A stretch of 64,000 nucleotides of DNA from a virus (taxonomy: Duplodnaviria; Heunggongvirae; Uroviricota; Caudoviricetes). The notes under the pieces were generated by a model. It had not been told where the DNA came from and searched no databases. It saw nothing but the letters and a program-made list of their open reading frames with translations. Position 1 is the stretch's first letter, and the number at the start of each line of letters is the position of its first letter. The translations under genes and the position numbers were made by a program. The stretch lies in the IMG/VR virus record IMGVR_UViG_3300011399_000001, positions 1 to 64,000 of that record. The stretch is one strand, 5' to 3'. Positions 8,285 through 43,125 of the stretch are shown here, in pieces.

Positions 8285-8821
8285 TTAATGTGTTTCTATA
8301 CTTATGTTACTAGGAGTGAAATCAATTACCCAGTATTTTCCATCTGCAAATATAATATTTTCATGATGTAAATCTCTATGAAAAATACCTTTATTTTTAA
8401 GCTCCTCTTTAATTACATTTCTCATTTCAATGGTAAAATCAGGTATATTTTGTACTACTGTTCCTTCCAAATATTGCATAACAATACCAATTCTATATCT
8501 TCTCTCATACCAAATAATTCTTACTCCATAACATGTTGGAATATTAGAATATCTTCTTTTTCCTTCTTCTAGCAGTCTTGCTTCTTCTATAGCCTCTTTA
8601 AAATAAAGACTGTCTAGTGCTGATTTCATTGTTTCGAATTCATAATATAACAATTTAATACCTTTAGAATTGGAAATACGCATATATATACCAAAGCTTC
8701 CATTACCAGAATAGGTGGAATTTTTAATCATTTTGGTTATTGTATTAGAATACACTCTAGGTTTAAACCCTTTAAAGAATAATAAATTGGGGATTTTAAT
8801 AAATTTATAGGAAATATTCAT
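8285..8821 (-). CDS. minimal protein-kinase-like protein (178 aa; Kdo/RIO/eukaryotic-like kinase fold)
   Basis: Gly-rich loop GNGSFG, catalytic-loop-like HRDLHHENIIF, DFG-equivalent VIDFT, in kinase order and spacing. Confidence 0.55.
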   Translation of the reverse strand: MNISYKFIKIPNLLFFKGFKPRVYSNTITKMIKNSTYSGNGSFGIYMRISNSKGIKLLYYEFETMKSALDSLYFKEAIEEARLLEEGKRRYSNIPTCYGVRIIWYERRYRIGIVMQYLEGTVVQNIPDFTIEMRNVIKEELKNKGIFHRDLHHENIIFADGKYWVIDFTPSNISIETH

Positions 8822-9252: not shown

Positions 9253-9741
9253 TTATGTTACCAAATCACCTGTCTTTACATTCCATTTAAGACCATGTTG
9301 AGGGCATTGTATTATACCATTAACAGCTTTACAACTTTTAAGAGAGGTTTTATGATGAGGACATATCATTCTCTTCATCTTAGCTTTTTTTATATCATTC
9401 TTCAAAGAACCAAATTCTGCTTCAAAAGGCTCAAAATGTCTAAAATACTCTCTTTCTTTATATTGTTCATCTACAACATCTTCTTTAATAATAGGAGCAA
9501 AATATTCACTATTTTTTCCCAAATGGAGATTATATAAGGAGAATACATCTCTTTGAGCTGTTATATATTCTTCTAATACAAATCTCCAATCTTGATGATA
9601 ATGTTCTTTATTTAGAGCATGTTTTGGGCTATCTTTGTGACTATTAGCAAATATAGGTCGCCATATTCCTTTCACTAATACACATTTAACCAAATAATAT
9701 TCTCCTATTTCAGGAGCTGTACATTGTTCAATATATTGCAT
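9253..9741 (-). CDS. protein with a C-terminal Rieske-type [2Fe-2S] motif (162 aa)
   Basis: ICPHH followed 17 aa later by CPQHG, which fits the Rieske CXH-X(15-17)-CXXH pattern. Confidence 0.5.
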   Translation of the reverse strand: MQYIEQCTAPEIGEYYLVKCVLVKGIWRPIFANSHKDSPKHALNKEHYHQDWRFVLEEYITAQRDVFSLYNLHLGKNSEYFAPIIKEDVVDEQYKEREYFRHFEPFEAEFGSLKNDIKKAKMKRMICPHHKTSLKSCKAVNGIIQCPQHGLKWNVKTGDLVT

Positions 9742-12598: not shown

Positions 12599-12997
12599 TT
12601 ATACTGATGCTTTCTCCAGTTCAGCAATGCTTTCTGCTGTAAGACCAAGTGATTTAGCCTCTTTAACAACAGCTCCTTCAATCTCAAGGTCAAGGGTTCT
12701 CACTTCAACTCTTGCGTTAATGAGCTCTGCTTTTGTGGCAAACACTGAATTGGCTGTCAAACGATCAACCAACAATGGCTGACCATCCTTCATCACTGGC
12801 TTATTATCGGCATCCAATTGACCAATCTTCTTCACCTCACCAATGGCATAGAATGGCTTGAAGTCAGCATCACCATTCTTCCAACCCAATGAAGCCATTT
12901 GGTTAGCATGAATGTGTAGGCGCTCACCTAATGCGGTGTAACCAGTGAAATTCTTCTTTTCAGTGAATTTACCTGATGTAATTGCGTAATTTTTCAT
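12599..12997 (-). CDS. hypothetical protein (132 aa), probably abundantly expressed early protein
   Basis: Clean ORF next to the divergent control region; GC higher than neighbours; hairpins in both the 5' leader and the 3' flank. Confidence 0.5.
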   Translation of the reverse strand: MKNYAITSGKFTEKKNFTGYTALGERLHIHANQMASLGWKNGDADFKPFYAIGEVKKIGQLDADNKPVMKDGQPLLVDRLTANSVFATKAELINARVEVRTLDLEIEGAVVKEAKSLGLTAESIAELEKASV

Positions 12998-13256: not shown

Positions 13257-13454
13257 ATGAGTAAAATAGACCAACAGATGTCTCTTTACGAACATATTGA
13301 AATATTGGCTAATATTAAATGTTTCATGTGTGAGAAAGAGGAGGAGATTGTGACAGATTTACTTGATTCTTCAGATTCCTTGGATTATTTCTATAAGAAG
13401 GGATGGAGGGTAAAGAATGGAAATTGTATTTGTAATAAATGTTTATTAAAATGA
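13257..13454 (+). CDS. small zinc-ribbon protein (65 aa)
   Basis: CFMC ... CICNKC, two CxxC pairs; first plus-strand gene after the strand switch. Confidence 0.5.
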   Translation: MSKIDQQMSLYEHIEILANIKCFMCEKEEEIVTDLLDSSDSLDYFYKKGWRVKNGNCICNKCLLK

Positions 13455-13539
13455 ATTTACGCCCCTTACAGCATAGTTATTCGCTCCTAAATATTAGGAA
13501 GGGGAATGTTATGTCGTAATGTAAAAGCGTTTATGTTAT

Positions 13540-13572
13540 AGCCCCCTCTCTTAATTGATTGGGGGCTTTTTG
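13540..13572 (+). terminator. rho-independent terminator (7-bp GC stem AGCCCCC/GGGGGCT plus TTTTTG)
   Basis: Seen directly, 86 nt after the 13257..13454 stop, immediately before the first tRNA. Confidence 0.55.
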
Positions 13573-13579
13573 TTTATAT

Positions 13580-13654
13580 AGGGTATTGGAGGAGCTTGCA
13601 GTCCTCGCCTCCCTTGGACGGAGGAGAACATAGGTTGAAATCCTATATACCCTA
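13580..13654 (+). tRNA. tRNA-Pro(TGG)
   Basis: Manual cloverleaf: acceptor AGGGTAT/ATACCCT, D-stem GAGG/CCTC, anticodon stem CCTCC/GGAGG with loop CTTGGAC, T-loop TTGAAAT. Confidence 0.7.
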
Positions 13655-13656
13655 CT

Positions 13657-13727
13657 TTCAATATAGTATAAGGAATGTACGCAAGATTTTGAATCTTGAG
13701 GTTTGGGATTGTGACCCAATATTGAAA
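13657..13727 (+). tRNA. tRNA-Gln(TTG)
   Basis: Acceptor TTCAATA/TATTGAA, anticodon stem CAAGA/TCTTG with loop TTTTGAA; short D-stem. Confidence 0.6.
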
Positions 13728-13729
13728 CT

Positions 13730-13803
13730 GTGTTTGTAGCTTAGTGGCTTAAAGCCTTTGATTGTGGTTCAAAGTATCGTGGGTTCGAATCCCATCAAAC
13801 ACC
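13730..13803 (+). tRNA. tRNA-His(GTG)
   Basis: Acceptor GTGTTTG/CAAACAC, anticodon loop TTGTGGT, T-loop TTCGAAT. Confidence 0.65.
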
Positions 13804-13807
13804 TGTT

Positions 13808-13879
13808 CTTCTTATAGTTCAATGAATAGAACACCTCACTACGGATGAGGAAATTGAGGTTTGACCCCTTATAAGAAGA
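13808..13879 (+). tRNA. tRNA-Arg(ACG)
   Basis: Perfect acceptor CTTCTTA/TAAGAAG, D-stem GTTC/GAAC, anticodon stem CCTCA/TGAGG with loop CTACGGA. Confidence 0.65.
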
Positions 13880-13884
13880 CACAT

Positions 13885-13967
13885 GCACTTATGGTGGAAT
13901 GGTAGACACGCTTGCCTTAGGAGCAAGTGCCTGAAAGGGTGTATAGGTTCGAGTCCTATTAAGTGTA
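13885..13967 (+). tRNA. tRNA-Leu(TAG), class II
   Basis: Acceptor GCACTTA/TAAGTGT (one G-U), anticodon stem CTTGC/GCAAG with loop CTTAGGA, long variable arm, T-loop TTCGAGT. Confidence 0.7.
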
Positions 13968-13972
13968 CATAT

Positions 13973-14057
13973 GCAGGTATGGCGAAATTGGTAGACGCAT
14001 CAGACTTAAAATCTGACGGGCATTATGCTCATAGAGGTTCGACTCCTCTTACCTGCA
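13973..14057 (+). tRNA. tRNA-Leu(TAA), class II
   Basis: Perfect acceptor GCAGGTA/TACCTGC, anticodon stem TCAGA/TCTGA with loop CTTAAAA, long variable arm, T-loop TTCGACT. Confidence 0.7.
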
Positions 14058-14062
14058 CATAA

Positions 14063-14149
14063 GGAGGGTTGGCTGGAGATGGATTATCGCACTAGTCTTG
14101 AAAACTAGAGGACAGAAATGTTCCGTGAGTTCGAATCTCACACCCTCTT
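14063..14149 (+). tRNA. tRNA-Ser(TGA), class II
   Basis: Acceptor GGAGGGT/ACCCTCT, anticodon stem CTAGT/ACTAG with loop CTTGAAA, long variable arm, T-arm GTGAG-TTCGAAT-CTCAC. Confidence 0.65.
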
Positions 14150-14152
14150 CAC

Positions 14153-14237
14153 AGAGAGCTGGCAGAGTGGTTTATTGCATTTGGTTGCTAACTAAAAGGG
14201 CTTAACAGCTCCAGGGGTTCGAACCCCTTGCTCTCTT
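14153..14237 (+). tRNA. tRNA-Ser(GCT), class II
   Basis: Perfect acceptor AGAGAGC/GCTCTCT, anticodon stem TTTGG/CTAAA with loop TTGCTAA, long variable arm, T-loop TTCGAAC. Confidence 0.65.
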
Positions 14238-14243
14238 CATTTT

Positions 14244-14326
14244 GGTATGGATGGTAAATTGGCTAAATCAGCAGACTGTAAATCTGTCGCCATTAGGCTA
14301 TGTAGGTTCGATTCCTACCCATACCA
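14244..14326 (+). tRNA. tRNA-Tyr(GTA), class II
   Basis: Perfect acceptor GGTATGG/CCATACC, anticodon loop CTGTAAA, long variable arm, T-arm GTAGG-TTCGATT-CCTAC. Confidence 0.7.
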
Positions 14327-14370
14327 CGAAAATAAATCATTTAAAATTTGGAATATTCGAATATATTCCC

Positions 14371-14378
14371 TACTTTTG
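14371..14378 (+). promoter_or_regulatory. TAnnTTTG element (TACTTTTGTATTATG) inside the tRNA array, directly before a 25-codon mini-ORF
   Basis: Near-identical to the motif at 13245-13259 (CCCTAYYTTTGTATTATGA). Confidence 0.4.
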
Positions 14379-14382
14379 TATT

Positions 14383-14460
14383 ATGAAACTGAAAAACGAT
14401 GATATTATAATGGCTAAAGAAGAGGATGAGGAGCTTACACTCCTGTCGTCTAGAAGTTAG
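14383..14460 (+). CDS. mini-ORF of 25 aa (MKLKNDDIIMAKEEDEELTLLSSRS)
   Basis: ATG 5 nt after the conserved promoter motif; it is the only part of track ORF 14242..14460 that does not overlap tRNA-Tyr; coding status uncertain. Confidence 0.25.
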   Translation: MKLKNDDIIMAKEEDEELTLLSSRS

Positions 14461-14641
14461 GACATTACACTTTCAATGTAAAAAAGAGGGAGCATTACCC
14501 TTCAGGAGTACACAAAAATAGAATCATGAAAAGGAATTGGTTTAATATTATGTTCACCTCATTTACTACAAGAGATTGTGGTAAGGCGGGAATATATTGT
14601 TGGAGCCAATAACTAATAAAGTTATAATCAAATTGATTAAG

Positions 14642-14667
14642 GGCTCCATAACAATGGGGCCTTTTTT
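14642..14667 (+). terminator. rho-independent terminator (GGCTCCAT-AACA-ATGGGGCC plus TTTTTT)
   Basis: Seen directly; closes the small transcription unit embedded in the tRNA array. Confidence 0.55.
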
Positions 14668-14673
14668 ATTTAT

Positions 14674-14746
14674 GGGGCATTGGTGAAGATGGCTATCACA
14701 CCTGATTTGCATTCAGGAGTCATGGGTTCGAAGCCCATAAGTTTCC
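14674..14746 (+). tRNA. tRNA-Ala(TGC)-like element whose acceptor stem does not pair (possible pseudo-tRNA)
   Basis: Canonical D-arm GTGA/TCAC, anticodon stem CCTGA/TCAGG with loop TTTGCAT and T-arm ATGGG-TTCGAAG-CCCAT. The 5' GGGGCAT has no complementary 3' strand; the 3' side reads AAGTTTC. Confidence 0.35.
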
Positions 14747-14752
14747 ACATAA

Positions 14753-14824
14753 CGAGGGTGTAGTGTAATGGCTGCATATCACACTGTCACTGTGAAGGTA
14801 GGAGTTCGAACCTCCCATTCTCGG
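14753..14824 (+). tRNA. tRNA-Asp(GTC)
   Basis: Acceptor CGAGGGT/ATTCTCG (two G-U), anticodon stem TCACA/TGTGA with loop CTGTCAC, T-loop TTCGAAC; D-arm slightly irregular. Confidence 0.5.
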
Positions 14825-14829
14825 CATAA

Positions 14830-14900
14830 GGGTTGTTAGCCTAGTGGTCAGGCAGTAGACTGTTAATCTACCTACGGGTGTTCAATTCACTCACTTCCCT
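14830..14900 (+). tRNA. tRNA-Asn(GTT)
   Basis: D-arm GCCT-AGTGGTC-AGGC, anticodon stem GTAGA/TCTAC with loop CTGTTAA, T-loop TTCAATT; acceptor GGGTTGT/ACTTCCC has two U-U mismatches. Confidence 0.5.
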
Positions 14901-14905
14901 CACAC

Positions 14906-14978
14906 ACGTATATAACTCAATTGGTAGAGTAATAGTCTCCAAAACTGTAAGCTGGTGGTTCGACTCCATTTATACGTG
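14906..14978 (+). tRNA. tRNA-Trp(CCA)
   Basis: Perfect acceptor ACGTATA/TATACGT, anticodon loop CTCCAAA, T-loop TTCGACT. Confidence 0.65.
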
Positions 14979-14983
14979 CATAC

Positions 14984-15055
14984 TCCCTTGTGGCTCAATG
15001 GTACAGCAGCAGTTTTGTAAACTGCCATTTGTAAGTTCGAATCTTACCTGGGGAT
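14984..15055 (+). tRNA. tRNA-Thr(TGT)
   Basis: Anticodon stem GCAGT/ACTGC with loop TTTGTAA, T-arm GTAAG-TTCGAAT-CTTAC; acceptor TCCCTTG/CTGGGGA has one mismatch. Confidence 0.6.
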
Positions 15056-15063
15056 CATAGAAT

Positions 15064-15137
15064 TTCTCTGTAGCTCAATTGAATAGAGCGACAGCCTTCT
15101 AAGCTGTAGGTTGGAGGTTTGAACCCTCCCAGGGAAG
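15064..15137 (+). tRNA. tRNA-Arg(TCT)
   Basis: Acceptor TTCTCTG/CAGGGAA (one G-U), D-arm GCTC..GAGC, anticodon stem ACAGC/GCTGT with loop CTTCTAA, T-arm GGAGG-TTTGAAC-CCTCC. Confidence 0.65.
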
Positions 15138-15257
15138 CTTAAATAATAAAAATGGAAACAGATAAGCGACAGAGGCACATGCCTCTAAAGCATTAAGGTG
15201 ATGCTCTAGACTTTTAATCTAGAGAAGATGGGTCAGTACCATCTAGGGGTACTTTAT

Positions 15258-15329
15258 AGTAGGATAGCTCAATGGTGGAGCGCCACACTGATAATGTGGA
15301 GGTTATAGGTTCAACTCCTGTTCTTACTA
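15258..15329 (+). tRNA. tRNA-Ile(GAT)
   Basis: Acceptor AGTAGGA/TCTTACT, D-arm GCTC-AATGGTG-GAGC, anticodon stem CCACA/TGTGG with loop CTGATAA, T-loop TTCAACT. Confidence 0.7.
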
Positions 15330-15337
15330 CTTTATAT

Positions 15338-15408
15338 TGCGGGATAGATTAATGGTAGATCAAGGGGCTCATATCCCCTGCGTGGGGGTTCAACTCCCCC
15401 TCCCGCCA
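15338..15408 (+). tRNA. tRNA-Met(CAT) with initiator-like features
   Basis: Anticodon loop CTCATAT on an AGGGG/CCCCT stem (three consecutive G-C pairs); 1-72 position mismatched (T versus C); T-arm GGGGG-TTCAACT-CCCCC. Confidence 0.6.
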
Positions 15409-15412
15409 CTAT

Positions 15413-15485
15413 GGACTCTAAGCTAACCTAGTGAAAGCGCTGGACTGAAAATCCAGGGAGTTTGGAGCGTAACCAAAAGGGTCCA
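15413..15485 (+). tRNA. tRNA-Phe(GAA), atypical D- and T-loops
   Basis: Acceptor GGACTCT/AGGGTCC, anticodon stem CTGGA/TCCAG with loop CTGAAAA; D-loop lacks GG and T-loop is AGCGTAA. Confidence 0.45.
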
Positions 15486-15490
15486 CATAT

Positions 15491-15564
15491 GTATTAGTAG
15501 CTCCTAATGCCAGAGCGTCTGACTTCCAATCAGAAGGCTGTGGGTTCAAGTCCCACCTAGTACA
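15491..15564 (+). tRNA. tRNA-Gly(TCC)
   Basis: Acceptor GTATTAG/CTAGTAC, D-stem GCTC/GAGC, anticodon stem TCTGA/TCAGA with loop CTTCCAA, T-arm GTGGG-TTCAAGT-CCCAC. Confidence 0.65.
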
Positions 15565-15754
15565 CAATTTTTTCCTCCTCATTATCAGGCGGTTAGCCTG
15601 TATTTTCCTCTTTCCCTATTATTTTCATTAAAAATGTTGTACCTTTGCAGGGTGGTTGGGTGGGGTATGTATAACAGCTCCCGATATAGAAAAAAAGAAC
15701 GGGACAGAAAGAATGTATTAATTAGGGGATAGTGTGTCTAATAATGTAATATAA

Positions 15755-15835
15755 GTCAAGGTTCCAGAGTGGTTAAATGGACCTGTCTGCAAAACAGGTG
15801 AGAAATCTTCGGGTGTTCGAATCACCTCCTTGGCT
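15755..15835 (+). tRNA. tRNA-Cys(GCA)-like with an unusually long (about 12 nt) variable arm
   Basis: Acceptor GTCAAGG/CCTTGGC, anticodon stem CCTGT/ACAGG with loop CTGCAAA, T-arm GGGTG-TTCGAAT-CACCT; extra arm GAGAAATCTTC. Confidence 0.45.
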
Positions 15836-15848
15836 CTAAATAAAGGAT

Positions 15849-16040
15849 ATGGAATTAACATTAAAAGAATTTACAGGATGCAATGTATGCGGTAATAGTC
15901 TTGTGGAAATAAGAGGGAGGTTCCCTGGAGACCCTAAAAGGAAGGTTTGTCCCACTTGTGTATATGAAAGGTTGGAACAGATAAATGAGCTCAGTTCTCC
16001 ACATTATGGACATGCTTGTAAAGAGGTCAAACAAAATTAG
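15849..16040 (+). CDS. small zinc-ribbon protein (63 aa)
   Basis: CNVC ... CPTC, two CxxC pairs. Confidence 0.45.
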   Translation: MELTLKEFTGCNVCGNSLVEIRGRFPGDPKRKVCPTCVYERLEQINELSSPHYGHACKEVKQN

Positions 16041-16114: not shown

Positions 16115-16471
16115 ATGGAGCAAGAAAAGAAAATAATAGCCAGTAGGATAAAGAAGCAGGAAAGCTCTCCATTAAGCCTAGCTACAAGGTGGTTTACAAT
16201 ACTATCAGCTATAGGAGATATGGGGCTTACAGAGAGGGAGATACAGCTTTTGGCCTTCATAGCTATTAAGGGGAACATCTCCTATTCTACCAATAGAGAA
16301 GAGTTTTGTACCACATATAAGAGCTCTTCAGCCACTATTAACAACATGATAAGCAAGCTTAAAAGAGCTTCTATATTAATCAATGAAGGGGGCAAGACTA
16401 AAATCAACCCCAGGATAGCAGTTAATTTTAATAATGATATTGTATTACAACTAACCTTATTACATGGATAA
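16115..16471 (+). CDS. hypothetical protein, possible HTH/DNA-binding protein (118 aa)
   Basis: ORF track; alpha-helical GLTEREIQLLAFIA segment; 8-nt overlap with the next gene. Confidence 0.5.
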   Translation: MEQEKKIIASRIKKQESSPLSLATRWFTILSAIGDMGLTEREIQLLAFIAIKGNISYSTNREEFCTTYKSSSATINNMISKLKRASILINEGGKTKINPRIAVNFNNDIVLQLTLLHG

Positions 16472-18109: not shown

Positions 18110-18422
18110 CTATGTATCAACAGAACTAGATTGGGCAGAAGAACAGCTTGCTACCTGGAGAGCTTATGTAGATGCCAACCCTTTAGACAAACTTAAAGAT
18201 AGGATTGAAAACAAACCAACCGCTAGAGGAGGTGTTATACCAATGGTGGTGTCTTCTATTGAACAGCAGGGAAAGTTTATACAGGATACAATGAAAAACT
18301 ATCTTTCTCTTTTAGAGATTGTTAACAATTTAAGAGAAAAAGAAGAGGCTAAGAAAGTAGAGATTAGGGGAAAAGGAGAGCTGTCAGGACAAGCTGCTAA
18401 TTTCTTAAATACTAGAAAATGA
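18090..18422 (+). CDS. candidate terminase small subunit (110 aa)
   Basis: Position only: ATGA overlap with the large terminase gene directly downstream; no motif. Confidence 0.35.
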   Translation: MAKKQNNYVSTELDWAEEQLATWRAYVDANPLDKLKDRIENKPTARGGVIPMVVSSIEQQGKFIQDTMKNYLSLLEIVNNLREKEEAKKVEIRGKGELSGQAANFLNTRK

Positions 18423-20464
18423 TAAAAGAACTAGCTGATTTAAAGGATGTTAAATCAATAGATTATAAGGATTGGTTAATAAATCAGAAAAGGCTTCCAG
18501 ATAAGACTTCTCAGGAATATGAAGCATTTTTTGAATTTCATAAAGAACTTTGTCTTAATGGAGCTATGGTTAATGGGGTGTACTTCAACCCCTTTTTGTA
18601 TTGGCACCTTAATATGTGGCATACAGAAGTGGATGTTATAGATGATAAGGGAAGAATAAGCCAACCATACAAAAACCCTCTTCTAAGAGATAATGAATGG
18701 ATAATTACAGAAGCCATAGAAAGAGCTCACAAGGAAAAGAAAGGACTTGCTATTGGTGGTATAAGGCGTTTAGCTAAATCAGTAATAGAAGCTTCATATA
18801 TAGGATGGGGAGCCACCCTTGACCAAAACTCACAGAATGTTATATCTGGTTTGAATGCAGCAGATATAAAACTTATCACTGATAAATTAGACAAAGGGCT
18901 AAACTTTGTCCCTGAATATTACAGATGGCAAAGGGTTGAAGATAATTGGAAAAATCAAGTAACCCTAGGAATAAAGACAAGAGCAGGAGAACGTATCCCA
19001 TTCTCCTACATCCTTATCAGGAACTTAGATGAGGGAAATAATGAAGAGGTTATTGCAGGAACAAAGCCAAGGAAACTAATTATAGATGAAGGAGGAAAAG
19101 GACCTTTTCTAGGAGGATTGAATGCTGCCAAGCCAGGTTTCACTACACCTTTTGGTTGGGCATGTTCTCCAATAGTTACATTTACAGGAGGAGATATGAC
19201 TAAGTTTCAGGATGCTAAAACTCTAATGTTTGATGTTGGAGCTTATAACTTCCTTGAATACAATAGTAAGGATGATACTAAGAGAGTGCATGGACTATTC
19301 TTTAGCCATAAGTATAGACTAGAGGGAAAGAAGGATTCTACACTAGGAGACTACCTTAATAGTCCAAACCCTGCATTAAAACAAATACCAATGCAAGTGA
19401 GCGATGAAGCACTTGCTACAAAGGTAACAGATGAGAATCTAATAATGGCTAAAAAGGCTGGAGATAGAAAAGCCTATTTAAAGGAAAAAATGTACTACCC
19501 TAAAACTGTAGATGACATTTTCCTTAATGAAAATACAAACATATTTGATATAGAGGCAGCTCAAAGACAGAAAGCTCGTCTTTTACAACAGGGAAGAACA
19601 GGTACTCCTGTTATTCTTTTTGCTTCAGAAACAGGAATTGGACATCAATTTACAGACAAGATGCCCATTTCCAATTTTCCATTAAAACCAAATGATGACA
19701 AGGATGCTCCTGTTGTCATATTAGAATTTCCAATAGCTGGTGCTATCTATGGACTTAATGTAGCAGGTGTTGACCCTTATAGGCAAGGAAAGGCTAAATA
19801 TAGTGATTCCTTAGGAGCCATATATATATACAAAAGAATGCATGACATTACTGGTGAGAAATACCAAGATATGTTTGTTGCTTATTATGTAGCTAGACCA
19901 GATGATAAAAAGAAATGGGAGGAACAAGCTAGACTCCTTATAAAATTCTATAATGCTCGTACCTTATGTGAAAATGATGATATATCATTTATAGAGCACA
20001 TGAAGGCTACCAATAATTCTCATTATTTAGAGAAACAACCTGATTGGTTAAAAGAAATAGTCCCTAACACAACTGTTAGTAGAGATTTTGGGGTACATCG
20101 TTCTTCTGACAAAATTGTAGACTTCTTACATGGTTGTTTAAAAAGATATACAGAAGAAATTATATTTGAAGAGAAGGATAAAGAGGGAAATGTTATTAGA
20201 CAGGTAACAGGAATGAGTAAAATTCTAGACCCTATGTTATTGGAGGAGATGATTCAATATAATGAGGATGGAAACTTTGATCGTATTGTAGCAGCAGAAC
20301 TTGCTTTAGCACAAGCCTATAAAATGGCCCCTATATATGGGAAGGCCACAGATAAACCAGATGATAGGGCTGCTTCTTTAGCAAAGAAACAAAAAGTAAA
20401 AAGTTTATTTCCCTCCCACAATCAGGGACTTTTTAAGAAATCAGAACGTAAATTATTCAGATAA
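18419..20464 (+). CDS. terL: terminase large subunit (681 aa)
   Basis: Walker A-like GGIRRLAKS, Walker B LIIDE, C-terminal RNaseH-like nuclease acidic residues (GVDPYRQG...); lies directly upstream of the portal with a TAATG overlap. Confidence 0.65.
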   Translation: MIKELADLKDVKSIDYKDWLINQKRLPDKTSQEYEAFFEFHKELCLNGAMVNGVYFNPFLYWHLNMWHTEVDVIDDKGRISQPYKNPLLRDNEWIITEAIERAHKEKKGLAIGGIRRLAKSVIEASYIGWGATLDQNSQNVISGLNAADIKLITDKLDKGLNFVPEYYRWQRVEDNWKNQVTLGIKTRAGERIPFSYILIRNLDEGNNEEVIAGTKPRKLIIDEGGKGPFLGGLNAAKPGFTTPFGWACSPIVTFTGGDMTKFQDAKTLMFDVGAYNFLEYNSKDDTKRVHGLFFSHKYRLEGKKDSTLGDYLNSPNPALKQIPMQVSDEALATKVTDENLIMAKKAGDRKAYLKEKMYYPKTVDDIFLNENTNIFDIEAAQRQKARLLQQGRTGTPVILFASETGIGHQFTDKMPISNFPLKPNDDKDAPVVILEFPIAGAIYGLNVAGVDPYRQGKAKYSDSLGAIYIYKRMHDITGEKYQDMFVAYYVARPDDKKKWEEQARLLIKFYNARTLCENDDISFIEHMKATNNSHYLEKQPDWLKEIVPNTTVSRDFGVHRSSDKIVDFLHGCLKRYTEEIIFEEKDKEGNVIRQVTGMSKILDPMLLEEMIQYNEDGNFDRIVAAELALAQAYKMAPIYGKATDKPDDRAASLAKKQKVKSLFPSHNQGLFKKSERKLFR

Positions 20465-23058
20465 TGGCTATTATTAGACATACAAAAGACGAAAATATAA
20501 GGTATGCTTATTTAAACATATTTCCAGATCAGTTTAAAACTGAGAAGGAGAAGCAAAATGATTCATGGGTGAAAAACACTATGGATTATTTTTCTAATAA
20601 AGCTTATGCTGAATATGTAAGAAATAGAGAAACTTTCGTTAAAAATTATGACCTTGTAAAAGGAATTTTAAGGAGAGAAGATTTTTATGAAGAACCTGCT
20701 GTAAAGAGTTTTACAGAGATGTTGACAGAAGACCTTGATCTTCCTGCATATGTAAAACATTATTCTATTATCACAACCCCCTTAAATGAGCTTGTAGGGG
20801 AAATATCTAAAAGACCAGATAATTATAAAATAAAAGCTTTTGATGATGACTCCAAATCTGAGGAGTTGGAATATAAGACACAAATTCTACAGGATTATAT
20901 AGTATCTGCTGCAAGACAGAAAATACAACAAAAACTAGCTTTACAAGGAGAAGAGATAACAGAAGAAGAACTTCAACAACTTACATTAGAAGAGGTAAAG
21001 GATGACCTTGATAGCTACACCTCTATAGCTGAAAAATGGGCCAATCACACTCTTACTTGTATAAAGGCAGACTTCAACCTTAAAGAAAAGAGTGAGGATG
21101 CCTTTAGAGATATGGGAATTACAGCAAGGGAATACTACCATATTTACGAGGATAATTCTAAGACAGGTTTTGATATAGAAGTATCCAACCCTAAGAATAC
21201 TTGGAAGCTTACTACCCCTGATAAGAAATATATATCAGACCCTTCAGGTAGAAGCAAAGGAGCTTATGCTGCTGGTACTGTGCATGTTATGGAGATTTCT
21301 GAAATTATAGAGGCTTGTTCAGATATTACAAAGGATGAAATTGATCACTTAAGACTAGCCCTTCAGGATTACGGACTTATCAATGTAAGGGAATCCAACC
21401 TTTTCAATGGCATTACCCCAGGGATTAATTCTATTACATATGACACCTATGACCCTTTAGTATTGCAGGAGAGAATGTTAATAGAAAGTGAGCTGAAGGA
21501 AAACAATGACTCTTTAAGAGATTTCCTTGGCCTCACTTCTAACGTTTCTGCTTTTGGGTATAAATATGTAGTGGTAAGGGCTTATTGGATAAGTAAGAAG
21601 AAAATAGGGAAAGTGACATATATAGATGAGCTTGGAAATGAGCAATCTATGTTAGTGGACGAAGATTATAAGGCAGGTACTATTCCTACAGAAATAGACC
21701 TAACTTGGGGATGGGTGAATCAATGGTATCAGGGAATGAAAATAGGACCAGACATCTACCATGTTAAACCTTTCAAATTACTAGACTATTGTCCTATTAT
21801 AGGGATGGACTATGAAATAAAAAATACAGAAGTTCGCTCTCTGGTGGATATGATGAAGCCTTTTCAGGTACTTTATAATGTCTGCATGAACCAAATGTTC
21901 GACCTTTTAAAGAAAGAAATAGGGAACGTAGCCACTATTAATATAAGAAGAATTCCTAGAGTGAAGGATGGAGATGCTCAGGATGATATTGATATATGGG
22001 AAATGGAGGCTAGAAACAGGGGTATTATGTTTGATGATGATAGTCCTGAAAATACCAAAGCTCCTGTCACCAACACCTCTGTAGCCAAGAATGTAGACCT
22101 TACAAGAACACAAGAAATGCAGGGACGCTATAATCTTGCTGTTCAGCTTAAAAACGAATGTTGGGAATTGATAGGAATGAGTAAACAAAGAATGGGAAGT
22201 GTATCTCCTTCAGAGTCTGCTACAGGAACCAATAATGCTGTACAAATGAGTTATTCTCAAACAGAACCAATGTTTGTAGCTCATGAATATGTATTAGGAC
22301 AACTATATCAGGCTATTATAGATGCTTCGCTTTATATAGAAAGTCAGAAGCCAGAATCCACCCTTTCTTATATCACCTCTCAGGGAGAATCTGCTTTTGT
22401 ACAGGTAAATGGAACTGACCTTAAATTAAGAGACCTTAAAGTGTTTCCTACCAACCGTCCTGAAGATAAGAAACTATTTGAAGAACTTAGACTGTTGGCT
22501 CAACCAGCTATGCAGAACGGAGCTTCATTATACGATATTGTAGAGCTTTATGCTACAGATAGTATTAGACAAATGAAGAAAACCTTCAAAGTCCTTAAAG
22601 ATAGACAGGAAGAGTTTCAAAACACTGCTCAACAACAAGAACAGCAACAACTTACTCAAAATGCTGAAATTGCCCAAGCTCAATTGGCTCAACAACAATA
22701 TGAGAAAGAGCAGGAATTGGCTCACGAAGACTATCAAAAAGAACTGGACCGTATTAATAAGAAGGAGATTGCCATCATCCAAAGCCTAGGTTTTGGTAAA
22801 GTGGAGGGAGAGGATACCAACCAGAACCAAATATTCGATGTTTTGGAAAGTAACAATCTTTCTTTTGAAAGAGACAAAGCCTCAAAGGACCATAATATCA
22901 AGCTTTTAGAGGTTCAAAATAAGAATAAGGCTGATGAAAGGAAGTTGAAATTAGATGAGGAAAAGCTTAAGGTGGAAAGAGAGAATATGGTTAACGACCT
23001 TCAAATTGCCAGAATAAACGCTAAGAATAAGAACAAGAAACCAGCTAAAAAGAAATAA
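20464..23058 (+). CDS. portal protein (864 aa) with a Q/K/E-rich C-terminal coiled-coil tail
   Basis: Size and position directly after terL with a translational-coupling overlap; C-terminal 150 aa are low-complexity QQQEQQQ.../K-rich. Confidence 0.6.
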   Translation: MAIIRHTKDENIRYAYLNIFPDQFKTEKEKQNDSWVKNTMDYFSNKAYAEYVRNRETFVKNYDLVKGILRREDFYEEPAVKSFTEMLTEDLDLPAYVKHYSIITTPLNELVGEISKRPDNYKIKAFDDDSKSEELEYKTQILQDYIVSAARQKIQQKLALQGEEITEEELQQLTLEEVKDDLDSYTSIAEKWANHTLTCIKADFNLKEKSEDAFRDMGITAREYYHIYEDNSKTGFDIEVSNPKNTWKLTTPDKKYISDPSGRSKGAYAAGTVHVMEISEIIEACSDITKDEIDHLRLALQDYGLINVRESNLFNGITPGINSITYDTYDPLVLQERMLIESELKENNDSLRDFLGLTSNVSAFGYKYVVVRAYWISKKKIGKVTYIDELGNEQSMLVDEDYKAGTIPTEIDLTWGWVNQWYQGMKIGPDIYHVKPFKLLDYCPIIGMDYEIKNTEVRSLVDMMKPFQVLYNVCMNQMFDLLKKEIGNVATINIRRIPRVKDGDAQDDIDIWEMEARNRGIMFDDDSPENTKAPVTNTSVAKNVDLTRTQEMQGRYNLAVQLKNECWELIGMSKQRMGSVSPSESATGTNNAVQMSYSQTEPMFVAHEYVLGQLYQAIIDASLYIESQKPESTLSYITSQGESAFVQVNGTDLKLRDLKVFPTNRPEDKKLFEELRLLAQPAMQNGASLYDIVELYATDSIRQMKKTFKVLKDRQEEFQNTAQQQEQQQLTQNAEIAQAQLAQQQYEKEQELAHEDYQKELDRINKKEIAIIQSLGFGKVEGEDTNQNQIFDVLESNNLSFERDKASKDHNIKLLEVQNKNKADERKLKLDEEKLKVERENMVNDLQIARINAKNKNKKPAKKK

Positions 23059-24936: not shown

Positions 24937-26490
24937 ATGGCAATTCAAACAATCCCAGGTCTAACTGGTTTTACCTACGCTAGGGTAGCTTCAATGGATA
25001 AACGTGCAGTGGGTAAACTCACTGACTCTAACCACTTAGAGAGCTTTCACTCTACAGAGCCTGCTGATTATGATAAGAAAATCATAAGCTTATACACACA
25101 GAGCTCATTGTATAGCAACGACTTTTTGGATATGATTAACAAATCTATTCCTTACTACATTGATAACAACAGTGATAGCTGGAAGTGGGATGTTAATGTT
25201 CCATATAAGTTTCCTAAAATCATTGCTATTCCAACTTCAACATCTGATAATACAAAGCCAGGTATTGATGGACAAGAATTCCAATTAGTATTGGACACTG
25301 CGGAATTCTCTAAAAACGCGATTCTTTCAATAGGAGATCGTAGATATGGTCCTCAAGTTTCTGTAGCAAAAGACCCTCTTCCTTGGAATTCAGGTTTCTT
25401 GTATACATTTACATTGGTGACAGACAATCCTATGGTGGACTTTGTAAGCCCTACTTATTTAAAGGTGGGAATCGAGGTTCAGTTGATTAGTGCGTCTATT
25501 GGGGAATTTGACCAAGACCTTTTAGGATTGCCACGTTTAGGAGAGAAGATTACAATGTTCGAATCTCTTGGAAGTGCATTTGGTTATGAGCACACTATCA
25601 CAAAATGGGCAGATGAAAAAATGCTTCGTAATGCTGATGGACAAGCTTTGGATATTCTGGTATATGCTCCTTCTCGTAGAAATCAAATGCCTCTTAAACG
25701 TAATGATGTACGTTGGGAGCCATTCATTGAGTTCTGGATGAGAAAATCAATGCTTGAATTGAAGGTGAACAAGTTCATCTGGGGTAAAGCAGGTACAGTG
25801 AAAACTAATGGCTCCAAGCAAGAATTGAAGCGTCTTTCTGATGGTGTATACCAAAGAATGCGTAACAACGGAAACTTGGTACAATATAACAGAGGTGAAT
25901 TCTCTGCCAATTTAATACGTGCAGTCTTCGGAGATTTGTTCTATCGTAGGGTGGATGTTAAAGACAGACGTGTAAAAATGTACACTAATGAGGCAGGTTT
26001 TGATACCTTCCAGCAAGCTCTGAAGGATGATGCTCTGAATTCAGGTTTAACACTGGTTGCTGATAGTGGTGAACGTTATATCCAAGGTGCAGGTCAACAT
26101 CTAACATACAATTGGGCGTTTGATTCAATGGTGACAAGGGAAACTGGACGTGTAGACTTAGTACACTTAAAAGAGCTAGACCTTCCTCAAACAAACCTTG
26201 AATTTGGTCAGAATAAGAAAAGCACACCTGTATTCTTCGTATTTGATGTGTCTCCTTCTAGTGATGGAAGTTTGACAAACAATATTCGTGAAGTACGTAT
26301 GAAGGGAGCCCCTTCTATGACATGGGGATATATTGATGGACGTCAATCTCACTTAGGACACTTTGCTTCTAAGGGAATGCAATCAGCCAACAAATTCCCA
26401 GGCTATACATTGTGGATGGAAGACAGATGTGATATTTTCATTGAAGACCTTTCTCGCACAGTTCTCATAGAAGAGATACCTCAGTTCTAA
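24937..26490 (+). CDS. candidate major capsid protein (517 aa)
   Basis: Position after portal/scaffold, size, high-expression codon usage and a very strong terminator immediately downstream; no fold-level check was possible. Confidence 0.5.
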   Translation: MAIQTIPGLTGFTYARVASMDKRAVGKLTDSNHLESFHSTEPADYDKKIISLYTQSSLYSNDFLDMINKSIPYYIDNNSDSWKWDVNVPYKFPKIIAIPTSTSDNTKPGIDGQEFQLVLDTAEFSKNAILSIGDRRYGPQVSVAKDPLPWNSGFLYTFTLVTDNPMVDFVSPTYLKVGIEVQLISASIGEFDQDLLGLPRLGEKITMFESLGSAFGYEHTITKWADEKMLRNADGQALDILVYAPSRRNQMPLKRNDVRWEPFIEFWMRKSMLELKVNKFIWGKAGTVKTNGSKQELKRLSDGVYQRMRNNGNLVQYNRGEFSANLIRAVFGDLFYRRVDVKDRRVKMYTNEAGFDTFQQALKDDALNSGLTLVADSGERYIQGAGQHLTYNWAFDSMVTRETGRVDLVHLKELDLPQTNLEFGQNKKSTPVFFVFDVSPSSDGSLTNNIREVRMKGAPSMTWGYIDGRQSHLGHFASKGMQSANKFPGYTLWMEDRCDIFIEDLSRTVLIEEIPQF

Positions 26491-36040: not shown

Positions 36041-36975
36041 GCTATTACTATAAATATAATTTTATCTCTCCCGAAGGAGTATATGCAGTTGTGGCAGAAG
36101 AATTGAAGTCGTATTTAGATACTGGTGCGGTTGATCAATTACTTTGGCCAACATATTTAAACAAGTGTCTAGACAAGCTTGGAAAAGGAACATATTACAT
36201 TACAGAAGATATTTTAAACATTGAAGATTTTGTAGCAAGACTTCCTGATAACTTCTATGCTGTTAGAGAAGCTTGGCTTTGTACAGAAATATCAGGATTT
36301 CCATATCAAGCAGCTAATTCATTTTATTCTCAGGCTGCCTCTGAAAGTACAATACAGGTTTCTCCTGTTATTTCTGGAGGTACTCCATGTACAAATACAG
36401 AATGTACTAATGATAATTGTGATGGAGCAGAATGTATGCCTGTGTTAATACAAGCTGTATACAAAACTAATAATGAAATTAATGTAACTTATAAAAGAAC
36501 GTACCTCTTAAAACCAGGGAATATTTCTGTAAAAGGACATTGTGCTTTAGATTGTAAGAATTTTGGAGCTTCTTCCCCTGATAGCTTTGATATAAGGGAT
36601 AATAAATTTGTCACTAATTTCAGATGTGGAAAGGTGCATTTAGTGTTCTATGCCACAGAATATGACAAAAGTGAAAATCAGCTTATTCCTGATAATTATA
36701 GAATTAAAGAATATATAGAAGCTTTCATTAAATATAAAGTATTTGAAACTTTATGTAATCAAGTAAATGATGAAACGTTTAACCAGCTTCTACAGAAACT
36801 ACAATATTACAAGCAATTATGTGACGAAGCCTATATATTAGCAGATACAGAGATAAAGAAGCAGGATGCTTATACTAAATTCAGAAGAATACAACAGAAC
36901 CTAAATAGTCTTAATAGATACGAACTCCCAGAAGGTAGAGTTAGACGTATTTTTAGAAGAAACGGTACAAATTAA
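36037..36975 (+). CDS. tail/baseplate protein, unknown function (312 aa)
   Basis: ORF track; 4-nt overlap with the upstream gene. Confidence 0.5.
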   Translation: MSYYYKYNFISPEGVYAVVAEELKSYLDTGAVDQLLWPTYLNKCLDKLGKGTYYITEDILNIEDFVARLPDNFYAVREAWLCTEISGFPYQAANSFYSQAASESTIQVSPVISGGTPCTNTECTNDNCDGAECMPVLIQAVYKTNNEINVTYKRTYLLKPGNISVKGHCALDCKNFGASSPDSFDIRDNKFVTNFRCGKVHLVFYATEYDKSENQLIPDNYRIKEYIEAFIKYKVFETLCNQVNDETFNQLLQKLQYYKQLCDEAYILADTEIKKQDAYTKFRRIQQNLNSLNRYELPEGRVRRIFRRNGTN

Positions 36976-42253: not shown

Positions 42254-43125
42254 TTATGAGAACGATAGTTATAAGATTAAAGAAAGCTGGAAAAAGAACT
42301 GATGTATTCTCCATTTCTGATGGAATGGGGAATATATTAATTGATGAAGTTAGTAAACAGGAACTCATTCAAGGAGTCTCGTTGTCTATAGCAGATAATG
42401 TTTCTGCGCTTGTAGTATCTTCTACAGGACTAAATTGCTGTTCTCTCTCTATAACTATCCCTATTACAACAATTACAAAACAAGAGCTTGCTGATTGGGA
42501 ATTTCAATCTGTCAACACATCCTCTGTTTGGAGACATTTAACAGACCCTACTTTATATAATAACTTCTATGGATGTATCCATCCTTATGTTTTAGAATAT
42601 CCTTTTGCATATCAATATTATGATGAAATTGTACAAAATGTAAAAGACTATACAAAGGTATATAAATATCTCCCTTCAATACATGGAGTATTTGATGACA
42701 CTAGAAGGATAGAAACGGATGTAGACTATTTCAATAAGTCGATATTATATAACGATCAACAATCTTCAGGTATTCTTACATTAGTTAGCAAGCCTGTTAA
42801 CAATATGAAGGAATATATGAAATATCCTATATTCAATACAGATAATAAATCTATTACATTTACGAAAAGTGATAATTTCTATCAATATAACACTTTTTGG
42901 AATATAGTGAAGAACAAAACCACCCCTCTATTTGTTTCCAGTTGTCAATCAATGTCTATTGATAAAGAAGTAAATGACGAGAATATGGATTATTCTACAA
43001 GAAGTTTTAGAAAAGATACTATAAGAGCCAAGGATTTAAAAGTGAGACAGATTCTTGACAACAGAAGTGATATACATTTAGTTTCACAATTCATCATAGC
43101 ACCAGCACAAATTTCATACAAATAA
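42241..43125 (+). CDS. tail protein, unknown function (294 aa)
   Basis: ORF track. Confidence 0.5.
   Translation: MYSLIMRTIVIRLKKAGKRTDVFSISDGMGNILIDEVSKQELIQGVSLSIADNVSALVVSSTGLNCCSLSITIPITTITKQELADWEFQSVNTSSVWRHLTDPTLYNNFYGCIHPYVLEYPFAYQYYDEIVQNVKDYTKVYKYLPSIHGVFDDTRRIETDVDYFNKSILYNDQQSSGILTLVSKPVNNMKEYMKYPIFNTDNKSITFTKSDNFYQYNTFWNIVKNKTTPLFVSSCQSMSIDKEVNDENMDYSTRSFRKDTIRAKDLKVRQILDNRSDIHLVSQFIIAPAQISYK

Follow-up and report, generated by a model that had tools for sequence, protein, structure and literature searches.

The DNA considered here, called the window, comprises positions 1-64,000 of the IMG/VR virus record IMGVR_UViG_3300011399_000001, assigned to the tailed phages (Caudoviricetes), and carries an array of tRNA genes at 13580-15835 (+). 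Twenty-two genes are packed in tandem on one strand within 2.26 kb, and a 23rd lies apart from them at 1013-1085 (−). ARAGORN detects 21 tRNA genes on the + strand (13580-15836) and one tRNA(CAT) on the − strand (1012-1085), while the Rfam covariance model RF00005, whose gathering threshold is 29 bits, matches all 22 array genes over their full length with scores of 36.4-69.1 bits. The gene on which the two methods differ, tRNA-Phe(GAA), is missed by ARAGORN and matched by Rfam only (42.6 bits). A preliminary description of the locus had counted about 20 phage tRNAs, and this is borne out by automated detection, which accepts 21 of the 22 (ARAGORN) or all of them (RF00005), as well as by the terminase, portal and major capsid genes located downstream.

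The first block of the array (13580-14326; 36-62 bits with RF00005) consists of nine genes separated by spacers of 2-6 nucleotides (nt): tRNA-Pro(TGG) (13580-13654), tRNA-Gln(TTG) (13657-13727), tRNA-His(GTG) (13730-13803), tRNA-Arg(ACG) (13808-13879), tRNA-Leu(TAG) (13885-13967), tRNA-Leu(TAA) (13973-14057), tRNA-Ser(TGA) (14063-14149), tRNA-Ser(GCT) (14153-14237) and tRNA-Tyr(GTA) (14244-14326). After a gap comes tRNA-Glu(TTC) (14439-14510; 50.1 bits) and, after another, a second block of eleven genes detected by ARAGORN and Rfam (14674-15564): tRNA-Ala(TGC) (14674-14746), tRNA-Asp(GTC) (14753-14824), tRNA-Asn(GTT) (14830-14900), tRNA-Trp(CCA) (14906-14978), tRNA-Thr(TGT) (14984-15055), tRNA-Arg(TCT) (15064-15137) and, beyond a third gap, tRNA-Lys(TTT) (15181-15251), tRNA-Ile(GAT) (15258-15329), the initiator tRNA-fMet(CAT) (15338-15408), tRNA-Phe(GAA) (15413-15485) and tRNA-Gly(TCC) (15491-15564). 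A last gap precedes tRNA-Cys(GCA) (15755-15835; ARAGORN, 46.2 bits with RF00005, and comparison with orthologs). The isolated gene on the opposite strand, tRNA-Ile2(CAT), is found by ARAGORN and scores 50.1 bits. Measured from N73 to the next 5′ end, the spacers are 2-8 nt long at 17 of the 21 junctions, as first described, but the remaining four are gaps of 112, 163, 43 and 190 nt. The 20 isotypes listed in the preliminary description are all correct, its 'Ala-like' and 'Cys-like' elements being tRNA-Ala(TGC) with G3·U70 and tRNA-Cys(GCA); the list overlooked Glu(TTC) and Lys(TTT). When bacterial identity rules are applied (PMC9976931), the expected elements are present in Ala (G3·U70), Cys (U73 and GCA), His (C73), Leu and Tyr (A73 and long variable arms), Ser (long arms), and Asp and Trp (G73).

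Homologous arrays occur in related phages. A terminase search of IMG/VR returns 295 relatives with genomes of about 100-120 kb, from which 80 loci were fetched. Two of the 80 contain the array, L001 (78% terminase identity) and L002 (75%), and these are the two closest; the other 78 or so, with terminases about 70% identical, have no tRNAs near the terminase. A junction-specific motif leads to the further array-bearing contigs L084, L085, L086 and L087, which come from metagenomes of soil and rhizosphere. In total, the array is represented by five distinct versions, about 70% identical to one another in DNA, and block 1 has syntenic orthologs in L001, L002, L084 and L086. The array is confined to a small subclade: in array-less relatives the divergent intergenic region, bounded by homologs of the window genes 12599-12997 (−) and 16115-16471 (+), measures about 650-1400 bp versus 3.1 kb in the window. 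Loss or degradation of individual genes is also seen, since Ala is degenerate in L002, Tyr and Trp are undetected in L001, and Val(TAC), located between Phe and Gly in the relatives, is absent from the window.

Despite this divergence, the secondary structures are maintained. Across the five syntenic arrays, 178 of 408 pairs in the acceptor, anticodon and T stems of the ARAGORN structures underwent double compensatory changes and 97.4% of cells are paired, compared with 25-35 pairs and 46-50% paired when the 3′ partner is slid by one or two positions. Between the window and L001 alone, the count is 108 compensatory doubles and 18 one-sided changes in which G·U maintains the pairing, compared with only six changes that break a pair. 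Such heavy compensatory evolution identifies the genes as functional tRNAs and not as decaying copies. Judged by this covariation, the cloverleaf is under strong purifying selection despite fast sequence turnover, and the status of the array genes as bona fide cloverleaf tRNAs, selected strongly for their structure, can be regarded as established.

The 3′ ends and departures from canonical structure

None of the 23 tRNA genes of the window encodes N73-CCA, so that 3′ processing and CCA addition are needed, as had been concluded at the outset. The ends had then been read as discriminator + CA(T/C). A punctuation of this kind is real, but the actual rule is N73-C74-(A/T). In the window array, 20 of 22 genes have C74, the other two, His and Ala, having their C at position 73, and the base following that C is A in 12 genes, T in nine and G in one. 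Over the five arrays, C74 is found in 78 of 87 genes, while C73 takes its place in the other nine, which are the five His genes, three of the Ala genes and a single Ser gene whose register is probably wrong. In 81 of the 87 the C is followed by A or T, and the background frequency of C is about 17%. The isolated Ile2 gene ends in A73-C74-T75; as it obeys the rule outside the array, tandem packing is not the cause of it.

The same ends are encountered in other genomes. The rule holds for five of five genes in Maribacter phage Panino and for 23 of 24 in the crAss-like phage cr111_1, where the exception is tRNA-His (C73-T, with T at −1). Chromosomal genes were sampled from 115 Bacteroidota-type loci (rRNA spacers), fetched by means of a Bacteroidota-type 16S 3′ end. 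Among the 181 tRNA-Ile and tRNA-Ala genes that they contain, C74 is present in 180 and CCA is encoded in only 10, position 75 being T in 68, A in 66, G in 33 and C in 14. A few cyanobacterial and other loci from the same retrieval also have C74, so the rule is not exclusive to Bacteroidota. Templated CCA is mostly missing from Bacteroidetes (PMC5143459). Given its occurrence in unrelated Bacteroidota phages and in chromosomes, the N73-C74-(A/T) end marks host-type CCA-less tRNA genes. It is a general feature of Bacteroidota-type gene architecture that the window shares, and not, as its first presentation implied, a peculiarity of this array.

In RNase P RNA, a conserved G of L15 is the pairing partner of C74, and activity returns when this pair is restored (PMC1874595). 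C74 may be retained because it lets RNase P act efficiently on precursors that lack CCA, or because it gives CCA addition a head start, and having another base than C at position 75 would spare RNase Z the block that CCA imposes on it. The shared C74 points to a conserved role in precursor processing, and the complete signature, common to Bacteroidota chromosomes and phages, could help to assign hosts.

Departures from the canonical fold concern a minority of genes. A canonical T-loop (T54-Ψ55-C56-R57-A58) together with G18G19 in the D-loop is found in 18 of the 22 array genes. Deviant T-loops are seen in Gln (ATTGTGA), Glu (AGCATTA), Lys (GTCAGTA), Phe (AGCGTAA) and the isolated Ile2 (TGCAGGT); moreover, Glu and Phe have a D-loop without GG and a G at position 55. 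Acceptor stems contain a tandem U·U in Asn, one U·U in Thr, three G·U and one A·A in Ala, and the 1·72 mismatch of the initiator. In tRNA-Asn, the tandem U4·U69/U5·U68 is conserved in four of four arrays and pair 7:66 covaries. The non-canonical D- and T-loops and the U·U and multiple G·U pairs reported in the preliminary description are therefore all recovered.

Among the 89 tRNAs of the clade, positions 54 and 58 are occupied by T and A in 70 and by A and T in 10, with few mixed states; non-canonical combinations total 19 of 89. The two positions covary (Fisher p = 1.4e-10), so that a T-loop-like fold is probably kept. Depending on the phage, the A54/T58 swap affects tRNAs for Pro, Gln, Glu, Ile or Phe, and other forms are G54/A58 (His of four relatives), G54/G58 (Lys of the window) and A54/G58. 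Both G54-A58 and G54-G58 were reportedly functional in an in vivo selection carried out by Zagryadskaya and colleagues in 2003. Elsewhere U54-A58 is near-universal, A54-A58 being found in eukaryotic initiators (PMC7912444), and no deviation from T54/A58 is seen in the 29 tRNAs of Panino and cr111_1 or in the 181 chromosomal genes.

Three further tRNAs deserve mention. The tRNA-Cys of the window measures 81 nt to N73 and combines U73 and a 7/5 acceptor/T arrangement with a variable region of 12-13 nt able to form three base pairs (bp), whereas its orthologs are ordinary class I tRNAs of 71 nt to N73 (75 nt in L084); this comparison shows that it arose recently from such a phage tRNA-Cys. Bacterial tRNA-His is characterized by a genomically encoded G−1 opposite C73 (PMC9976931). 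In all five arrays and in cr111_1 (L090), tRNA-His has C73 but a T at −1, and no G−1 is encoded; its acceptor stem, GTGTCTG, is identical in L001 and cr111_1. Finally, U73 is found in both tRNA-Ser genes and in tRNA-Asn, where the E. coli rules expect G73. If confirmed experimentally, the A54/U58-swapped T-loops, the expanded-arm tRNA-Cys and the tRNA-His devoid of G−1 could inform work on tRNA structure and identity.

Decoding capacity, gaps and genomic setting

The two genes with a CAT anticodon are distinct in nature. The one at 15338-15408 has a U1·C72 mismatch, A11-T24 and four G-C pairs beside the anticodon loop (G28-31/C39-42), a T-A pair standing in place of G12-C23. Bacterial initiators are recognized by a 1:72 mismatch, A11-T24 and R29G30G31/Y39C40Y41 (PMC1635315), and by these published discriminators it is an initiator tRNA-fMet. 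For tRNA-Ile2 the criteria are A3 or G3 with T70 or C70, which excludes Met and fMet, together with C4-G69 and C5-G68 (PMC1635315). The gene at 1013-1085 (−) is classified accordingly as a lysidine-type tRNA-Ile2, a predicted reader of AUA, because it has A3-T70, C4-G69 and C5-G68. In alignments its ortholog in L001 and L084 is a member of the array, placed between Arg(TCT) and Lys, where the window has only the 43-nt spacer, so the gene has been relocated in the window genome. Within this interval, a block of 15-16 nt upstream of tRNA-Lys (TATGGAAACAGATAAG, 15152-15167, +) is conserved in all four arrays amid diverged spacer. A whole-window Rfam scan reveals neither Val nor elongator Met tRNAs in the 64 kb; a hidden Val tRNA or third CAT tRNA was also sought by BLAST with the genes of the relatives, which returned none, and Rfam added none. 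L001 (13521-13593) and L002 (19259-19330) possess an extra tRNA(CAT)-like gene with a mismatched acceptor stem; it belongs to the structural module, some 7 kb past the terminase, and has no counterpart in the window.

The anticodons form a set with one member per codon box or half-box, U34 serving four-fold boxes and NNR codons and G34 serving NNY codons; Arg-ACG, Trp-CCA, the initiator and Ile2 complete it. The late genes have a GC content of 0.23 at third codon positions, and ATA represents 46% of Ile codons, AGA 71% of Arg, TTA 39% of Leu and GGA 53% of Gly. Under strict wobble the set reads 74% of late-gene codons, a proportion that rises to 90% if U34 also reads U (cmo5U-type) and to 93% with superwobble; codons without a reader are those for Val (5.6%) and internal Met (1.4%). 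The preliminary description had invoked codon compensation for the AT-rich late genes. The anticodons do fit AT-rich usage, but the set is complete with one tRNA per box, and the comparison of early and late genes that this proposal calls for finds them alike in codon usage. It had also stated that no suppressor anticodon is present and that the giant late open reading frames (ORFs) give no indication of recoding. Both statements stand: CTA, TCA and TTA are absent from the anticodons of the window tRNAs, and ORFs of 1073-3794 residues are uninterrupted in code 11.

The gaps of the array contain candidate signals for its expression. Upstream of tRNA-Pro, two elements are conserved in all five arrays, namely a leader block (TTTACGCCCCTTACA...CATTCGCTCC...GGGGA; about 13452-13520, +) and a GC-rich hairpin followed by a U-run (13541-13575, +), which ends 5 nt before the gene and may be a terminator, an attenuator or the 3′ end of a small RNA. 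The relatives also have a TTTG-N20-TAnnTTTG promoter some 130 nt ahead of Pro. The layout of 13452-13575 looks like an attenuator or read-through arrangement. Ahead of tRNA-Glu, a candidate Bacteroidota-type −7 element, TACTTTTG (14371-14378, +), emerges from a four-way alignment in which TA and TTTG are invariant and the two middle bases variable. The TAnnTTTG motif is not enriched over the window (100 matches versus 89 ± 10 expected) and was discarded as a window-wide promoter signal; conservation and placement are therefore what count, and only conserved, correctly placed copies were retained. A sigma-70 promoter scan gives nothing above expectation (12 versus 9.5).

Between Glu and Ala lies a structured element (14525-14668, +) conserved in the array-bearing clade only, with a nucleotide identity of about 92% compared with about 70% for the rest of the arrays. 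It comprises a long hairpin of about 32 bp (about 14536-14612), then an intrinsic-terminator-like hairpin followed by a U-run (14639-14664, +). The minimum free energy of the gap is −50.6 kcal/mol versus −26.7 kcal/mol for shuffled sequences (z = −6.5), and pairs of the long hairpin are kept through one-sided changes. The hairpin coincides with a 28-codon ORF (14525-14611, MKRNWFNIMFTSFTTRDCGKAGIYCWSQ). Since substitutions are mostly non-synonymous yet preserve pairing, an RNA element is favoured, and a peptide gene appears less likely. No Rfam family is recognized in the gaps, this element included; Phe_leader (E = 0.78), YrlA and sX4 were dismissed as sub-threshold chance matches.

Downstream of tRNA-Gly, the terminator scan detects another hairpin with a T-run (15586-15600, +). 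It is followed by a conserved block, TTTG-N~20-TAnnTTTG-GGG...GGGTGGG, whose putative −7 element, TACCTTTG (15640-15647, +), would belong to the promoter of the rightward packaging and structural operon. The block is found in the array-bearing phages and also in the array-less L065 and L070, and it is the only flanking non-tRNA element that array-less relatives share. The tRNA-Cys gene sits in the leader of this operon, about 105 nt downstream of the −7 box.

Four transcription units can be proposed from this layout. The first would run from the upstream promoter through the leader block and the hairpin/U-run at 13541-13575 to the genes from Pro to Tyr. The second would start at the TACTTTTG promoter (14371) and include Glu, the long hairpin and the terminator-like hairpin at 14639-14664. 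The third would cover Ala to Gly, from 10 nt past that terminator to the hairpin at 15586-15600, and the fourth would lead from the conserved promoter (15640) through Cys into the packaging and structural genes. Two tRNA blocks would accordingly start right after a hairpin/U-run that is itself preceded by conserved structured RNA, an arrangement that could reflect leaky termination, regulated read-through or embedded small RNAs.

Gene orientation switches at about 13000, with leftward genes on its left and rightward genes on its right. The rightward module encodes the large terminase (18419-20464, +), the portal (20464-23058, +) and the major capsid protein (24937-26490, +), all within 11 kb downstream of the array. 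Farther on are very large structural-module ORFs at 36975-41717 (1580 residues), 43125-46346 (1073), 47184-49925 (913) and 49925-61309 (3794), all on the + strand; the 1580-residue protein matches PHROG 'virion structural protein' families. Ten ORFs beside the array, scanned with Pfam, include no tRNA-processing or repair enzymes and give only weak kinase-like, Rieske and DUF4313 matches. Two leftward ORFs, 8285-8821 (−) and 9253-9741 (−), have weak protein-kinase/APH-like matches and a Rieske [2Fe-2S] domain match. Small Cys-rich ORFs with a zinc-ribbon-like CxxC...CxxC pattern flank the array at 15849-16040 (+) and 13257-13454 (+), and tblastn detects no homologs of them in the relatives. 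In many IMG/VR contigs of the phage family, the sequence stops in the divergent intergenic region, 2-5 kb ahead of the terminase, and that of L001 stops 181 nt short of tRNA-Pro; the genome may physically end here, or assemblies may break here.

In DNA the array matches no phage record beyond single tRNA-sized pieces, and a close isolate is therefore lacking. Ranked by major capsid protein, the isolates that come nearest are Leptolyngbya phage Lbo-JY46, at 26% identity, and Flavobacterium phages, at 22%. The promoter of the rightward operon fits the Bacteroidota sigma-A consensus TTTG-N~20-TAnnTTTG, and Shine-Dalgarno-like motifs precede just one of 26 genes, against a background of 17%, in leaders that are A-rich. 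As for tRNA-Ile(GAT), it starts with A1 both in chromosomal Bacteroidota (AGTCTCA or AGTCCTA) and in the phage copies (AGTAGGA or AGTAACT), and the anticodon stem-loop of the window gene is identical to one chromosomal Bacteroidota variant. Taken together, the promoter, the scarcity of Shine-Dalgarno motifs, the tRNA-Ile features and the capsid homology with Flavobacterium phages make a host among the Bacteroidota likely, cyanobacteria being the main alternative.

Probable decoding supply and competing explanations

The best explanation, to which a probability of about 0.55 can be given, is that of a functional tRNA cluster providing a lytic phage of about 120 kb with a nearly self-sufficient decoding set matched to its AT-rich codons. 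Host-type promoters (TTTG...TAnnTTTG) would drive three or four transcription units across the array, in part by read-through of the hairpin/U-run elements. Cleavage of each 5′ end by host RNase P would also release the preceding tRNA, which would retain a 2-8 nt trailer; its 3′ end would be trimmed by RNase Z or exonucleases of the host and completed by the host CCA-adding enzyme. Modification and charging would be ensured by host TilS and aminoacyl-tRNA synthetases. The resulting pool would sustain the translation of phage genes and cover ATA, AGA, TTA and GGA, codons that the host would decode poorly or stop supplying during infection.

Several observations weigh against this explanation. 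A complete set with one tRNA per box differs from what selective codon compensation predicts, and the window has no tRNA for Val or elongator Met, which leaves the phage only partly independent of host tRNAs. The GC contents of array-less relatives cover the same span (0.28-0.42), so an AT-rich phage of this family has no general need of the array, and a GC mismatch was rejected as the reason for its presence in the subclade alone. Some of the tRNAs may be poor substrates, namely His (no G−1), Glu and Phe (no GG/T-Ψ-C elbow motifs), and Ser and Asn (U73). The host itself is inferred from sequence. Finally, the covariation counts use ARAGORN's own structures, although the shifted controls argue against a bias.

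A possible, but distinctly less probable, explanation is that the array serves mainly to replace host tRNAs that are cut or depleted by tRNA-targeting defence nucleases (PrrC/RloC, VapC-like, PARIS, Septu or retron effectors, Cas13 and similar), in which case the stems that diverge fast and the unusual T-loops and variable loops would be escape variants. This hypothesis is already published (PMC10264068), and the completeness, patchy distribution, fast divergence and elbow variants of the array fit it: the set is near-complete and not codon-selective, and it is an accessory trait of a small subclade. The phage tRNAs diverge like the phage's own DNA (about 70% identity), whereas the anticodon stem-loops of chromosomal Bacteroidota tRNA-Ile are identical in 89 of 98 genes. 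Likewise, tRNA-Ala has the loop TTTGCAT versus the dominant chromosomal CTTGCAC (positions 32 and 38), and non-canonical 54/58 combinations reach 19 of 89 in the clade versus 0 of 29 in the other Bacteroidota phages and 0 of 181 in chromosomes. Cleavage outside the anticodon has a precedent in Septu, which cuts the variable loop of tRNA-Tyr (PMC13096335). On the other hand, the anticodon loops are mostly canonical, that of tRNA-Ile being identical to a chromosomal variant, and rapid compensatory drift is also expected under merely relaxed constraint. Nor does escape from nucleases require the very good fit between anticodons and codon usage, and the one-per-box design with its decoders of AGA, TTA and GGA and its Ile2 fits decoding supply. 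The preliminary description had offered both functions, the matching of codons and counter-defence, and the sequence is compatible with either.

A more elaborate proposal, which must be judged improbable, combines two ideas. The elbow, T-loop and variable-arm variants (A54-U58 in at least five isoacceptor families, in place of the near-universal T54-A58 reverse-Hoogsteen pair, G54-A58 or G54-G58, the tRNA-Cys arm and the conserved tandem U·U of Asn) would be selected escape forms, active in translation and hidden from host enzymes or defence nucleases that read the elbow, T-loop or variable region, and the two conserved structured RNAs, with the hairpin/U-run that follows each of them, would be cis-acting antitermination switches timing tRNA expression. 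If true, the locus would be a regulated, defence-resistant translation module, beyond a simple tRNA supplement.

It is very unlikely that the array is decaying or selfish cargo, that is, a horizontally acquired cassette of little fitness value that is drifting and in which Glu, Phe, Lys, Gln, Cys and His would already be non-functional. Irregular T- and D-loops and mismatched stems in several members could be taken in this sense, as could the loss or degradation of Val (window), Ala (L002), and Tyr and Trp (undetected in L001) and the move of Ile2 out of the array. Gene order is however kept in five diverged genomes, 97% of cells stay paired through 178 double changes, the deviant T-loops covary at positions 54 and 58, and the tandem U·U of Asn persists in four of four arrays, so that decay of the array as a whole appears largely refuted by covariation. 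Least credible of all is an alteration of the code, either by a suppressor or by a class II-like tRNA(GCA) that SerRS, LeuRS or TyrRS would charge so as to place a non-cognate residue at Cys codons: the variable region of 12-13 nt, with its possible 3-bp arm, the Ser-like D-loop (GAGTGGTTAAA) and the U73 also found in both phage tRNA-Ser genes speak for it, but this tRNA retains U73 and GCA, the two main CysRS determinants (PMC9976931), its orthologs are ordinary class I tRNA-Cys, its arm is far shorter than the 5-bp arms of the phage's own tRNA-Ser, no CTA, TCA or TTA anticodon exists, and the long ORFs are intact in the standard code.

With decoding supply as the preferred explanation, the locus documents a near-minimal one-per-box decoding set in an uncharacterized soil and rhizosphere phage lineage that probably infects Bacteroidota. 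Its array-less close relatives offer a natural gain/loss contrast for testing why phages carry tRNAs.

Comparison with known systems

Clusters of 15-37 tRNA genes are documented in many Caudoviricetes (Morgado & Vicente 2019, PMC6409571). Large tRNA clusters have been familiar in phages for decades, so that one more brings no fundamental change, and the T-loop swaps and the hairpin-before-tRNA architecture are the sole aspects that might repay experimental follow-up. As in other phage clusters, small ORFs or gaps occur occasionally inside the array, which is an intergenic, accessory element of a large lytic phage. An example is the crAss-like phage cr111_1 (MT774387), whose array of about 25 tRNAs is likewise made of tandem same-strand genes with very short spacers, serves nearly all amino acids, and shares the N73-C74-(A/T) ends and a tRNA-His without G−1. 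The anticodons of cr111_1 include CTC, CTT and TAT, whereas the window set is strictly one per codon box, and the T-loops of cr111_1 and Panino are all canonical, in contrast to the many 54/58 variants of the window clade. The lineage is also distinct from known clusters in its major capsid protein, the best isolate match being at 26% identity.

The tRNA region of phage T4 encodes eight tRNAs, several without encoded CCA, and two small stable RNAs, and its multimeric precursors are processed by host RNase P, RNase BN/Z and the CCA-adding enzyme. The window array is similarly polycistronic, with genes a few nt apart, incomplete CCA ends that imply host 3′ trimming and CCA addition, and embedded structured non-tRNA RNAs (13452-13575 and 14525-14668). 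It differs by its 22 genes and near-full decoding set, by another host phylum and promoter type, and by embedded elements that lack homology with the species 1 and 2 RNAs of T4 (no Rfam match). The tRNA-Cys recalls selC* tRNA-Cys and allo-tRNAs (Mukai et al. 2017, PMC5389517; PMC7609411) by its U73, GCA anticodon and enlarged variable arm. Those tRNAs, however, have an 8/4 or 9/3 structure (12-bp acceptor branch) with a long arm, compared with 7/5 and an arm of at most 3 bp in the window; with U73, GCA and this 7/5 architecture, the window tRNA-Cys is not a selC* or allo-tRNA.

Chromosomal tRNA genes of Bacteroidota provide the last term of comparison. Like them, the phage genes lack templated CCA, template C74, and have A1-U72 in tRNA-Ile(GAT) and G3·U70 in tRNA-Ala. 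The phage copies nevertheless diverge far faster, and their mismatches and non-canonical T-loops set them apart from all 181 chromosomal genes.

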